This document shows, piece by piece, positions 1,342 through 5,698 of a DNA stretch of 64,000 bases. The DNA lies in the sequence record OQ174501.1, one strand, 5' to 3'. Position numbers and translations under genes: made by a program. The notes under the pieces were generated by a model, which did no database searches, was not told the origin of the DNA, and worked only from the letters and a program-made list of their open reading frames with translations. The DNA comes from Escherichia phage REP2. Each line of letters opens with the position of its first letter. Within the stretch, counting starts at the first letter, position 1.

Positions 1342-1935
1342 ATGAACACACTGAAGAAAATTGTTGAGTTTATTCGCACTAAACTTGGTTCTGCTATGGC
1401 TAAAAATCTATCTGTTGAAGAGCAGTATACCGCTGCGGCAGCAAAACTACTTGATAAGATTAAAGATCTAAAAACTGCTTCTGTTAAATCTATTAATGAA
1501 GAAAAGCGTATTCGTGAACTTATTGTCGAAAAGAATAAGCAGGCCGAATCAAAAGAGCGTGAAATTCGCAAGCTTCTTTCGGAAGGTCAAGATGTAACAA
1601 TGCATGCTAAACTTGGTTTACTATATCGTCGAACAGCTGAGCAGTTGACTACTAAAGCTGATGGTTATGCTGAAATGCGAATTGAAATCGCCAAGAAAGT
1701 AGTTGAGTTAGATGATGCTCGTCAAGAACTTGCGGTTAAATTGGAATATATCCGTGAAACTCGTGCAGCAAATGCCCTTGGAATTAGTACTGCCGATGAT
1801 GTAGTTGAAATTGCAGCACTGACTAAGGTTGATATTGAAGATACCCTTGCTCGAGTTGAAACCTTTAACGGCAATATTTCTGGGGTTGAAACTACCTCTG
1901 CCGATGTTCAGGAATACATTAATTCTCTGAAATAA
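1342..1935 (+). CDS. Coiled-coil protein, possibly PspA/IM30-like
   Basis: 197 aa, heptad-rich helical sequence; SD aaggaaa upstream. Confidence 0.5.
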
Positions 1936-1976
1936 TGATAAGGGGCTTCGGCCCCTATTACTTGGAGTAAGTAGGA

Positions 1977-2582
1977 ATGAAAATGCAAAGTGATTTCAAT
2001 TCAATGTTTGAAGAGTTCCAAAGACAGGTTGATGTTCCAGACCAATTATTAAATGCTCTTAAACGTATGGCAGAAGGACGTAATTACTATTGGGGTTCTT
2101 CATATGAAACTGATGAAAGTCTTTCTGGATTTTATAAAGGTAAAAAGTCTTTAATACGTCCTGGAATACTTATTAACAGTATTGAATCAATTCATTCATT
2201 AACATGTGATTTTGATGTTGAATTTACTGATTTCATTTCTCCTGAATGGACAGTATGTTATTTAAACGACGATTATGATTATCTTGGCGTTTATAGTTTA
2301 AGTGATGCATGGTTTAAACGTAATTTACAAAAGTCAAATTTATTTTATATTGATACTACGGTAAAATTTCAGGGAAAGAAATATTTCTTTACTCTTATAG
2401 TTGATTCTGAAACAAAGCATGAAAATAAACGTATTCTTAGTAAAAAGAATATCTTAACTATTGTTGATGATCTTTTTGATAAATTCGTAGAAAATCCTAA
2501 TTTTGAAAGCGATTTATTATTAGAAAAATTTGTTAAGGAATGTAGAGAATATGTCAAAGCCATCACTATACCTTCCAAGTAA
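1977..2582 (+). CDS. Hypothetical protein
   Basis: 201 aa; C-terminus FVKECREY shares the junction motif seen in the next three genes. Confidence 0.55.
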   Translation: MKMQSDFNSMFEEFQRQVDVPDQLLNALKRMAEGRNYYWGSSYETDESLSGFYKGKKSLIRPGILINSIESIHSLTCDFDVEFTDFISPEWTVCYLNDDYDYLGVYSLSDAWFKRNLQKSNLFYIDTTVKFQGKKYFFTLIVDSETKHENKRILSKKNILTIVDDLFDKFVENPNFESDLLLEKFVKECREYVKAITIPSK

Positions 2583-2943
2583 ACCGTTGAAGTATGAATT
2601 AAAGCGTCAGATAATTTCTACTGATGTGTTAATAGGTCCTGTGGTAGCCGTATCATTTGTGATTCTGCTGATTGCTGGAATAGTTATAGACGTTATGACT
2701 GATATTGAATCTGGTGCAATATTTGGAGCAACACTAATTCTTCCATTGGTAGTTCCGCTTTTATTAGTACCTATAAATTGGATAGGATATTGGTATCAAG
2801 GAAGACACTATCGTAAACGTGTACGTGAATGGAAAGCTCAGTGTAAAAAGATTAAAAAGGAACACCAGCTTAAACTTGCTGCGCATGAATTTAATGAAAT
2901 TATGAAATTTGTTAAGGAATCACGATGCAAAAGCCAAAACTAA
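2551..2943 (+). CDS. Small membrane protein (2 TM), paralogue family
   Basis: Hydrophobic segments VVAVSFVILLIAGIVI and LILPLVVPLLLVPI; charged C-terminal tail ending KESRCK. Confidence 0.55.
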   Translation: MSKPSLYLPSKPLKYELKRQIISTDVLIGPVVAVSFVILLIAGIVIDVMTDIESGAIFGATLILPLVVPLLLVPINWIGYWYQGRHYRKRVREWKAQCKKIKKEHQLKLAAHEFNEIMKFVKESRCKSQN

Positions 2944-3287
2944 ATAAAGTCAAATATTCTCTTCCTGAGTCATTTTTAATTTTTGCTGTAGCGTTGGCTA
3001 CAGCTCTTGCGGGTAGTCTTTTTGGATTGTTAATTGACTGTCTTATTTTAAACATTGACGGCACAGTAAATATAATAGAAGTTTGGAGTGAACTTCGTTA
3101 TACTATAGCGATTTCATTATTTTCATTCTTTGGTACCATGTTATATTTTCATTATGATAATTTTAAAATAAATTGGCAAAGAAAAAAGGATTACAAAATA
3201 CAATTAAATGAATATAATAACTACATGTCTTATATTGAAAAAGAATCAATGGAAGAGTTTGTGAGTGATTGTAGGAAAATTAAATGA
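2925..3287 (+). CDS. Small membrane protein (2 TM), paralogue family
   Basis: 120 aa; TM segments; C-terminal SDCRKIK. Confidence 0.55.
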   Translation: MQKPKLNKVKYSLPESFLIFAVALATALAGSLFGLLIDCLILNIDGTVNIIEVWSELRYTIAISLFSFFGTMLYFHYDNFKINWQRKKDYKIQLNEYNNYMSYIEKESMEEFVSDCRKIK

Positions 3288-3772
3288 TTTTAAAAACTCG
3301 CTGGTATGATTTAGATGATGGGGACGATGGCATTTCAGTTGATAGAGTTGACTGGAGTGGCTGTTCCGAAGATATGAAAAAATTGTTAATTAGGGAGTTT
3401 AGAATGGGATATCAAGCAGCTAAGCCATCTACTGTAACAGATGATAAATTCGTGTGTATTCAAAATGGTCGTGCTAAGTTAACGAACGCTGATTGGTTCA
3501 CAGATAAGAAGGTTATTCTGTGGTATATTATTAGTTTTCCTGTGACATCATTTGTATTTTGCTTCTTTGGAGAAAGTCCAGTAGGCAGAACGGAAGATTG
3601 GATTCTTTTAATTATACTTGTTAATATTTTTACAGCAGCAGTACTATCAGGAATATGGTGCGTGTTCATTGAAATGCCATGGCGGTTACGTAGGCAGCAA
3701 AAGATTTTTGATGAAAAGAAATATACTCAAAATTTAAATAATTTTATCACTGAATGCAGGAAATTAAAATGA
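3284..3772 (+). CDS. Small membrane protein, paralogue family
   Basis: 162 aa; TM segments; C-terminal TECRKLK; its stop overlaps the nudE start (ATGA). Confidence 0.55.
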   Translation: MILKTRWYDLDDGDDGISVDRVDWSGCSEDMKKLLIREFRMGYQAAKPSTVTDDKFVCIQNGRAKLTNADWFTDKKVILWYIISFPVTSFVFCFFGESPVGRTEDWILLIILVNIFTAAVLSGIWCVFIEMPWRLRRQQKIFDEKKYTQNLNNFITECRKLK

Positions 3773-4208
3773 AAACATTATCAGCTGGTATTATCTTTAT
3801 GACAGAAGATAAAGATTTATTTATGGGACGAGTTACTGGTTCTCGTAAGCCTGGAATGATGGCACATCGCTGGATATTCCAAAGGGGCGTGTAGAAAATT
3901 CTGATTTAAGCGCATTAGATGCAGCACGAAGAGAATGCTCAGAAGAGACTGGTTTTAACAATTATAATCCAGACCTTCTAGAAGACCTAGGTGTATTTAA
4001 ATATTCTAGTAATAAAGACTTACAGTTATTTTATTATACGATTCCAGTAGAGCATGAGATGTTCAGAAATTGCCGTTGTGAGTCTTATTTTGAAAATAAA
4101 GATGGCGTTATGATTCCAGAGATGGATGCTTTTGCTCTTATTCCTCGTACTCAGTGGCAATATGTGATGGGTCCTTCACTTTACCGAATAATGAACAGCC
4201 TCTTTTAA
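3769..4208 (+). pseudogene. nudE: Nudix hydrolase NudE (e.1) with apparent 1-nt deletion frameshift
   Basis: N-terminal 41 codons (MKTLSAGIIFMTED...MMAHRW) stop at 3892-3894; the rest, including the Nudix box GRVENSDLSALDAARRECSEETGF, continues in the -1 frame to 4208. The break is at tgg(g)atattcc. Confidence 0.6.
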
Positions 4209-4778
<570 letters not shown>

Positions 4779-5224: not shown

Positions 5225-5698
5225 ATGAAAACATATCAAGAATTTATCACTGAAGCAGCTATTAATTCTCAAATTATTGCTGAATCTTTTACCGATCTTT
5301 TGAAATTTAAAAAAGGTCAAAAAATCACTGCTGTATTGGATGATGGTACAGAAGTTGAGATGGATGTACAGGGATATAATTATGCAGTAGATGGAAAACT
5401 GTATAATAAATCTCATGCTAAATTTGATTCATTTGACGACTTTGTTAATACAGTTGAAGATGAAAAAACTCGTAGATCCATTGCAACTGGCGACGCTAAG
5501 GTTCTTATGGCACATGGCCATGAACGCATCCGCGCTAAACAGAATAAAATGGGCGAAGATAATTTTGCATTAGTTGGTTATCAATCTGGTAAACAAACTT
5601 ATGGCTATCAACGTACTGCTACCATGTATAATAAAAATGGTAAAATCGCTTTCGTGAATAGTAAAGGTTCTATTCAGTACGTTAAATCGTTCAAATAA
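5225..5698 (+). CDS. Internal protein (Ip) with capsid-targeting N-terminus
   Basis: MKTYQEFITE|A capsid-targeting sequence; 157 aa. Confidence 0.7.
   Translation: MKTYQEFITEAAINSQIIAESFTDLLKFKKGQKITAVLDDGTEVEMDVQGYNYAVDGKLYNKSHAKFDSFDDFVNTVEDEKTRRSIATGDAKVLMAHGHERIRAKQNKMGEDNFALVGYQSGKQTYGYQRTATMYNKNGKIAFVNSKGSIQYVKSFK

Follow-up and report, generated by a model that had tools for sequence, protein, structure and literature searches.

Escherichia phage REP2 carries, at positions 1977 to 3772 of a 64,000-nucleotide (nt) stretch of DNA (sequence record OQ174501.1; this whole stretch is referred to here as the window), four consecutive small genes whose products end in very similar peptides, which raises the question of what is conserved at these gene ends and what it could be for. 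A sequence-only reading of the window had regarded the locus as a cassette-shuffling array of small membrane-protein genes joined by a repeated nucleotide junction. Positions 1900-3800 are approximately 92% identical to phage T4 at the DNA level, and the window as a whole matches Escherichia phage REP3 (OQ174502, Tequatrovirus) at 100% identity. The four open reading frames (ORFs), which lie on the plus strand, as do e.6, nudE and the lysozyme gene e, match the REP3 and T4 annotation of e.5 (1977-2582), e.4 (2551-2943), e.3 (2925-3287) and e.2 (3284-3772), formerly named msp4 to msp7, in the same order and with the same overlaps as in T4. Together they make up the T-even accessory operon e.5-e.4-e.3-e.2(-nudE), and comparison with related phages shows that the C-terminal peptide, and not the DNA encoding it, is what the four genes have conserved.

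The peptides at issue are FVKECREY in e.5, FVKESRCK in e.4, FVSDCRKIK in e.3 and FITECRKLK in e.2, with phenylalanine codons at 2529, 2908, 3258 and 3743, and all fit the pattern F-[VI]-x-[ED]-[CS]-R, placed at the C-terminus or close to it. All four were found exactly as previously quoted, although the motif is not terminal in e.5 (F-V-K-E-C-R, 2529-2546, with 11 residues beyond it) or in e.4 (F-V-K-E-S-R, 2908-2925, with five residues beyond it); in e.3 and e.2, the peptide runs directly into the stop codon (F-V-S-D-C-R-K-I-K-stop, 3258-3287, and F-I-T-E-C-R-K-L-K-stop, 3743-3772). A six-frame search of the window with F[VIL]x[ED][CS]R returned six matches against 0.71 expected from shuffled sequences, and four of the six are these tails. 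The same six matches were obtained in the whole REP3 genome (reassembled, 167,921 bp), in which no further gene ends with the motif.

The codons of the motif also form the Shine-Dalgarno sequence of the next gene, as had been proposed. At the first two junctions (J1 and J2), this is AAGGAA, the lysine and glutamate codons, preceding the start codons of e.4 (ATG 2551) and e.3 (ATG 2925); at the third and fourth (J3 and J4), it is AGGAAA, and the stop codon overlaps the start of e.2 and of nudE, respectively (ATGA). The notion of one repeated nucleotide junction fared less well on alignment. J1 and J2 do share an exact 16-mer, AAATTTGTTAAGGAAT (2526-2541 and 2905-2920), and J3 and J4 share approximately TG(T/C)AGGAAA together with a TTAAA-ATGA end, but the single consensus given for all four is a composite, and pairwise identity over the 21 motif bases is 10-16 of 21 (10-15 of 21 between the two subtypes).

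To examine how far the tail extends beyond REP2, the locus was compared with those of Mosigvirus (Shf125875 and loci from IMG/VR), Dhakavirus (JS10 and others), an unclassified metagenome contig (L029), Klebsiella phage Roth01, Karamvirus myPSH1140 and Aeromonas Biquartavirus avDM2, and the tail was found to persist in at least six genera of T4-like phages. The Mosigvirus tails are FIMECREY (e.5), FVKEIRCK (e.4), FIKECRK-stop (e.3) and FITECRNLR-stop (e.2), and an extra gene for a protein with two transmembrane (TM) segments, ORF133c, ends FIKECRGK-stop. Dhakavirus has FIKECREYAK, FIKEVRNGTA-stop, FIKECKS-stop and FIEECRK-stop. Roth01 has five tailed proteins, including one of 102 amino acids (aa) encoded after nudE, and the metagenome contig has four consecutive tailed genes. 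Four 2-TM proteins of Karamvirus end FIDDCRRARK, FITECRGK.., FISRCRVKR and FIQGIRGTR, and in avDM2 a 263-aa soluble protein encoded directly 3' of e.6 ends LFVDYCRR... An exhaustive HMMER search with e.2 against 1.84 billion representatives recovered only 12 relatives, and the distant ones among them, at 34% identity, have the tails FIKECRK, FIKMCRNS and FIKGCRK. In word-indexed homologue searches with e.5, e.3 and e.2, nearly all matches were at the Tequatrovirus level, the exception being a 47%-identical e.5 homologue in phage NBG1.

Across Tequatrovirus, Mosigvirus and Dhakavirus, the motif retains F, I/V, E/D, C and R, and the underlying codons vary: the arginine is encoded by AGA, AGG, CGA, CGT or CGC, the cysteine by TGT or TGC, and the phenylalanine by TTT or TTC. 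The Shine-Dalgarno sequence of the next gene is likewise built from different codon pairs of the tail, namely K-E (AAGGAA), E-E (GAGGAA), R-K (AGGAAA) or R-G (CGAGGA). Because codons and the position of the ribosome-binding site change while the residues stay, these alignments show that the conserved entity is the peptide and not the DNA junction, and that selection at the protein level maintains it. In Tequatrovirus, column entropy in the TM regions of e.3 and e.2 is two to three times that of the tails, which are the least variable part of these proteins.

The bodies to which the tail is attached are of several kinds. The 201-aa product of e.5 is soluble, and hydropathy analysis detected no TM segment in it; it matches phrog_2607 (E 2e-108), and its homologues carry PF26876. 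The products of e.4 (130 aa, phrog_2604) and e.2 (162 aa, phrog_2203, with homologues carrying PF26896, Phage_T4_Y06M) each show two TM segments, those of e.2 lying between a soluble N-terminal domain and the tail. For the 120-aa product of e.3 (phrog_2330), the first segment is strong and the second weaker, below the cut-off and visible only by eye, so that the count of three 2-TM products offered by the sequence-only reading is clear for two of them and half clear for the third. All four PHROGs matches are full-length, with E-values from 2e-108 to 3e-60, and the two Pfam assignments come from precomputed annotation of close homologues, the local Pfam copy lacking the PF26876 and PF26896 models. 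Lysine and arginine are concentrated in the N- and C-terminal tails, a positive-inside pattern by which the three inner-membrane proteins are predicted to have both ends in the cytoplasm.

Several of these bodies appear to be related to each other. In the window, e.4 and e.3 are colinear by BLASTP (23% identity, E 0.006) and align in hhalign with 89% probability (E 2e-6, 114 columns), and the corresponding neighbours in the metagenome contig are 33.6% identical over 125 aa (E 4e-19); judged by these alignments, the two genes are tandem paralogues. The 2-TM-plus-tail half of e.2 aligns with e.3 (hhalign, 91% probability), and e.2 has this module behind an additional N-terminal domain. On the other side, e.5 and Mosigvirus ORF133c resemble other tailed proteins only over the last 9-17 residues or columns. 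In AlphaFold2 models, the e.5 motif lies within a helix (residues 179-195; pLDDT of the model 62.6), and TM2 and the tail of e.2 are drawn as one long helix (residues 103-161; pLDDT of the model 49.8, too poor for a fold search). The e.5-like protein of Dhakavirus was considered as a swapped cassette, since BLASTP aligned only its tail; hhalign aligned it with 85% probability over 98 columns, and it is probably a diverged e.5 orthologue. An internal tail-like stretch, EWKAQCKKIKK, was also observed at residues 92-102 of e.4 (window 2820-2860), about 27 residues before the true tail; it is kept as EWxxxC in Mosigvirus and Dhakavirus e.4 and may be a relic of an older C-terminus.

With moderate confidence, we favour the reading that the tail is a cytoplasmic amphipathic docking or assembly motif, which links these proteins to each other or to a common partner, gene loss at the locus being a by-product. 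The consensus can be written approximately as hydrophobic-x-x-F-[IV]-x-[ED]-C-[RK], followed by basic residues. The hydrophobic residue at -3, the F, the I/V and the C occupy positions i, i+3, i+4 and i+7 and would fall on one face of a helix; this spacing, together with the basic residues that follow, is the basis for regarding the tail as the putative end of an amphipathic cytoplasmic helix suited to docking. One soluble and several membrane proteins could then bundle together, or bind one cytoplasmic partner, through their tails, and the more variable TM hairpins would supply different membrane-side specificities. By keeping short DNA repeats at successive gene ends, the tail at times allows the T4 recombination system to delete a whole gene cleanly between them.

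The predicted candidate for the partner is the product of e.6 (T4 msp3, 1342-1935), a helical soluble protein encoded directly 5' of the array, adjacent to it and much better conserved. Homologues of e.6 occur in 1106 phage records; identity is still 51-61% in phages of Aeromonas and Klebsiella, and the conservation of e.6 far exceeds that of the array downstream. A tailed gene directly follows e.6 in Tequatrovirus, Mosigvirus, Dhakavirus, Roth01 and avDM2; in Karamvirus, the tailed genes lie about 2.6 kb 3' of e.6 with other genes between, and in RB43, where the annotated e.6 is short, there are no tails. By eye, e.6 had seemed PspA/IM30-like, but Pfam and a PDB sequence search returned no match for it and gave this resemblance no support.

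A number of points weigh against the docking reading. Both AlphaFold2 models are of low or moderate confidence, and the hhalign match between e.3 and e.2 comes mostly from the tail itself. The cysteine is not invariant, being replaced by S, I or V in e.4 and by M in one Klebsiella protein. Some of the conservation may come from dual coding, since each tail extends into the initiation region of the next gene and, in J1 and J2, into its first codons. The genes are also dispensable, in T4 under laboratory conditions: T4 e.2 is truncated before the tail, T2-type phages have no e.2, and T4 e.2-e.6 are listed in a CRISPRi-ART screen as of unknown function and "Not Fit", that is, without a knock-down fitness effect (PMC11879866, supplementary file 15).

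A more far-reaching version of the docking reading, which we regard as rather unlikely, makes the tail a universal adaptor. A conserved cytoplasmic hub, plausibly a coiled-coil-like e.6, would bind a changing set of membrane modules, and a single soluble one, by way of the C-terminal helix that all of them share, forming a plug-in membrane complex whose TM hairpins diversify against envelope targets of the host or of rival phages, and whose modules are gained and lost cleanly as the adaptor DNA doubles as a recombination site.

The recombination history of the locus could also be read in another way, in which the repeated DNA junction is itself functional, as a linker for shuffling, inserting and losing membrane-protein cassettes, and the peptide is incidental. 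Clean gene loss is indeed observed. In T2, PST, RB32, PP01, Ozark and others, e.2 is absent exactly: the body of e.3 is followed by GATTGCAGGAAA and then by TTAAAATGAAAAC of nudE, with CRKLK in place of CRKIK. This junction is a J3/J4 chimera with the crossover inside a 9-12-nt repeat, of which the e.3 tail forms the left arm and the e.2 tail the right arm, and in a junction-spanning search it was recovered as a single unbroken match in at least 55 of the 60 top records. Since e.2 is present in all other genera, its absence represents a deletion. Similarly, an e.4 homologue is present in some Dhakavirus genomes and absent in others, with the crossover in a repeated AGGTTCnnAATG initiation region; where e.4 is missing, parts of two initiation regions, AGGTTCAAAATG and AGGTTCGTAATG, are combined, which gives the chimeric e.5/e.3 junction of JS10-type phages. 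Moreover, in Mosigvirus and Dhakavirus, the e.3/e.2 junction is the exact site of an insertion of 8-12 genes, one of which (ORF133c) carries the tail, and short homology is known to suffice for T4 recombination (Arbiol et al. 2010, PMC2839356). The earlier proposal that the junction repeats provide recombination substrates is therefore well founded: the repeats are usable as recombination sites and account for one common polymorphism. As the gene content of the array is not invariant among relatives, the refuting condition attached to that proposal fails.

The further step to a cassette-shuffling array is not supported. The order e.6-e.5-e.4-e.3-...-e.2-nudE is kept in Tequatrovirus, Mosigvirus and Dhakavirus, the e.6-to-nudE/e synteny of the array is the same in T4, T2, RB69-like and JS10-like phages, and the tailed-gene arrays of Klebsiella and Karamvirus phages occupy the same e.6-to-lysozyme interval. 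Neither reordering nor a foreign cassette between two tails was found in Tequatrovirus. Three deletions break away from the junctions: one fuses e.5 and e.4 in frame in Shigella phage A2, one removes 250 bp from within e.3 in a Mosigvirus locus (L015), and one fuses e.4 to e.2 in UFV05. The only apparent body swap, a foreign body fused to an e.2 tail (P0120), was rejected; its sole contig, a metagenome scaffold of 524 bp, has about 115 bp of T4-like sequence between unrelated DNA and is probably an assembly chimera. The repeats are only 9-16 nt long, and both the limited junction identity and the codon turnover under a constant peptide argue against the DNA as the functional element, a reading that we consider improbable. 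The array is a syntenic coupled operon and not a freely shuffling set of cassettes; the gene order kept across genera and the shared location of the Klebsiella and Karamvirus arrays suggest that its genes were inherited vertically and duplicated in tandem, and not shuffled as cassettes.

Other kinds of variation were also noticed at the locus. In one Dhakavirus locus (L020, IMGVR_UViG_2974497520_000001), the TM hairpins of e.3 and e.2 are strongly unlike other Dhakavirus alleles, that of e.2 resembling the Tequatrovirus type, and the tails are identical or near-identical, which looks like a mosaic exchange of the membrane part with the tail retained. A second shared-tail family is inserted between e.3 and e.2 in Mosigvirus and Dhakavirus, as two to five small soluble genes in tandem (L005 3857-4651 and L006 3851-4639), with two more genes in Karamvirus (L036 7299-7825). 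Most of its members end G-W-V-S-S-S-x-x-C-stop, with looser copies that include both Karamvirus ones (W-L-S-S-S-D-M-C and W-Y-T-S-S-C), and most of those in Mosigvirus and Dhakavirus are followed by ggaaaNNNatg. Truncating frameshifts are common in public e.2 and e.3 sequences (L007 3860-4168, which is T4 e.2, and P0105-P0110, P0051, P0055 and P0058): T4 e.2 is 102 aa long and ends before the tail, and several e.3 alleles stop at an A-run (..WQRKK), giving a frame-shifted product of 97 aa, which suggests either relaxed selection or homopolymer sequencing errors.

It could also be supposed that the tail has no common function and is a relic of tandem duplication, frozen by dual coding with the next ribosome-binding site and start region. 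The paralogy of e.4 and e.3 and the shared module of e.2 are in keeping with this, every tail overlaps the next initiation region, and the use of AGG for arginine in J3 and J4 clearly serves to make a Shine-Dalgarno sequence. However, the most invariant residues, F and I/V, sit 5' of the Shine-Dalgarno sequence; in Dhakavirus e.5, the motif begins 39 nt before the next ATG and hence lies 5' of that Shine-Dalgarno sequence. Arginine codons of both the AGR and the CGN family are used, and the Shine-Dalgarno sequence shifts between codon pairs, with the peptide kept. The tail is also found on bodies in which no further similarity is detectable, namely e.5, Mosigvirus ORF133c and the 102-aa protein of Roth01. 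A frozen relic is accordingly an improbable source of the whole pattern.

Two further explanations fare worse. The 2-TM proteins could be holin- or antiholin-like lysis regulators, with the basic tail as a charged holin C-terminus, a role that would be compatible with a docking tail. The endolysin gene e follows 0.5-2 kb downstream, in the same orientation, and the genes encode several paralogous N-in/C-in 2-TM hairpins with K/R-rich cytoplasmic tails; in having two TM segments, this topology and a charged C-terminus, e.4 and e.2 resemble class II holins (the second segment of e.3 being weaker), and as small phage inner-membrane proteins the membrane products also resemble T4 Imm and Sp. Against this, there is no sequence or profile similarity to either group: no holin family was matched in Pfam, PHROGs or NCBIfam, the PHROGs labels being "unknown function" or "membrane protein", and neither Pfam nor NCBIfam gave an Imm/Sp match for any of the four proteins. 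The late-promoter consensus TATAAATA occurs only at 4211 and 4224, after nudE and before e (4245-4739), so that no late promoter precedes the array genes; the tail motif is foreign to the holin and Imm/Sp families, soluble e.5 has the same tail, and T4 knock-down is without fitness effect. T4 lysis is, besides, already explained by t, e, rI, rIII and the spanins, and a holin-like role appears very unlikely. Least credible of all is a nascent-peptide effect, in which the tail, still inside the ribosome tunnel, would pause translation near the overlapping start and so promote re-initiation. The motif does always lie 16-39 nt before the next start, whether it is 3 or up to 13 codons from its own stop, but such closeness is expected of any C-terminal motif in tightly packed operons, the spacing is variable, no known arrest-peptide feature was identified and other coupled T4 genes do not have the motif.

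Database searches gave little indication of what the proteins do. Pfam, NCBIfam and PADLOC scans of e.5, e.4, e.3, e.2 and e.6 returned no informative match, and the PADLOC-DB models of known and candidate defence systems did not match any of the four array proteins. Nothing found in the analysis bears on the suggestion that they are superinfection-exclusion or anti-defence factors. Public records label the gene products hypothetical or predicted membrane proteins. In some GenBank records, e.3, e.2 or e.6 is named "sulfurtransferase", "host specificity protein", "DNA primase" or "serine decarboxylase", names that have no support from profile searches and look like propagated annotation errors. 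As far as searches by gene name show, in which the genes appeared in gene tables only, the shared tail has not been described in the literature or in public records.

The successive overlaps of e.5, e.4, e.3, e.2 and nudE measure 32, 19, 4 and 4 nt. Promoter-like sites number 16, compared with 14.8 ± 3.8 in shuffled sequences, and none lies at any junction; in GenBank L13089, promoters are annotated solely 5' of e.8, e.7 and e.6. From the overlaps, the lack of excess promoter sites and these annotations, we read e.5 to nudE as one translationally coupled unit. RNA folds at J1, J2 and J4 are no better than those of shuffled sequences (z = +1.8, +0.2 and +0.1), J3 has z = -1.5, and no structure is common to the junctions, where RegB sites (GGAG), MotA boxes and a shared RNA fold were sought and none was found. 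The only GC hairpin in this comparison is the GC-rich GGGGC-UUCG-GCCCC (1941-1956) between e.6 and e.5, which is annotated as a stem-loop in L13089.

Downstream, nudE (msp8, 3769-4208) is the last gene of the coupled operon, and the late promoters and e (4211-4739) mark the limit of the locus. Relative to close relatives, a G-run of nudE has a 1-nt deletion (approximately 3871-3873) that splits the gene into ORFs of 46 and 49 aa, and the GenBank record of REP3 annotates only a 126-nt "nudix hydrolase" here; either a sequencing error or a real pseudogene would account for this. The locus is flanked by internal-protein genes at 75-548 and 5225-5698, both with an N-terminal capsid-targeting leader (MKSYAQFLNEA and MKTYQEFITEA), and denV directly follows e in the window, unlike the T4 order e-ipIII-ipII-denV.

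Several known systems invite comparison. The genes are the same as T4 e.5, e.4, e.3 and e.2, although T4's own e.2 ends before the tail. Among described mechanisms by which T4-type phages gain and lose ORFs cleanly, the closest is that of the PeSL (promoter-early stem-loop) cassettes of their hyperplastic regions, in which short conserved sequences lie between non-essential genes (Arbiol et al. 2010, PMC2839356; Comeau et al. 2014, PMC4122927). PeSLs are intergenic and about 100 bp long, and each combines a sigma-70 promoter with a terminator stem-loop; recombination between neighbouring copies deletes or inserts whole ORFs, leaving one chimeric copy (PMC2839356, PMC4122927). The present array works like these cassettes, without belonging to them, in that an ORF is removed and a chimeric repeat left (e.3/nudE in T2-type phages and e.5/e.3 in JS10-type phages). 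It differs in having no intergenic space, promoter or stem-loop at its junctions; its repeats are 9-16 nt long and coding, and the conserved thing is a peptide.

The classic rII and e deletion mutants of T4 arise between short direct repeats. The loss of e.2 and the Dhakavirus e.4 indel resemble such microhomology deletions, crossing over within 9-15-nt direct repeats, except that the repeats here are maintained by selection on a protein motif, so that the same clean deletion is repeatedly available. The closest functional analogy is offered by the internal proteins (IPs) of T-even phages, otherwise unrelated small proteins encoded near e at variable loci and sharing one short terminal peptide, which has the same function in all of them. 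The capsid-targeting sequence of IPs is N-terminal and is cut off by the prohead protease. In contrast to this leader, the array tail has another sequence and is carried by membrane or cytoplasmic proteins, at their C-terminus or close to it, and none of the four array proteins carries an N-terminal leader of the MKTYQEFI type. IP loci, too, are recombination-prone (PMC2839356).

The genes have been on record since T4 was sequenced, and the shared tail is a modestly new feature and a useful functional lead. About half of T4 genes are without known function, e.2-e.6 among them. A peptide common to four or five neighbouring products, in phages from Aeromonas to Escherichia, predicts joint action or a single partner, and it directs attention to the residues F, I/V, C and R and to e.6 as the first candidate. 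Moreover, the locus provides an example of a coding constraint, combining a protein motif with the next ribosome-binding site, that creates short repeats and thereby leads to whole-gene loss with the neighbouring genes intact. Repeats of this tail type may explain some of the "clean" presence/absence polymorphisms in T-even genomes that lack PeSL-type elements.

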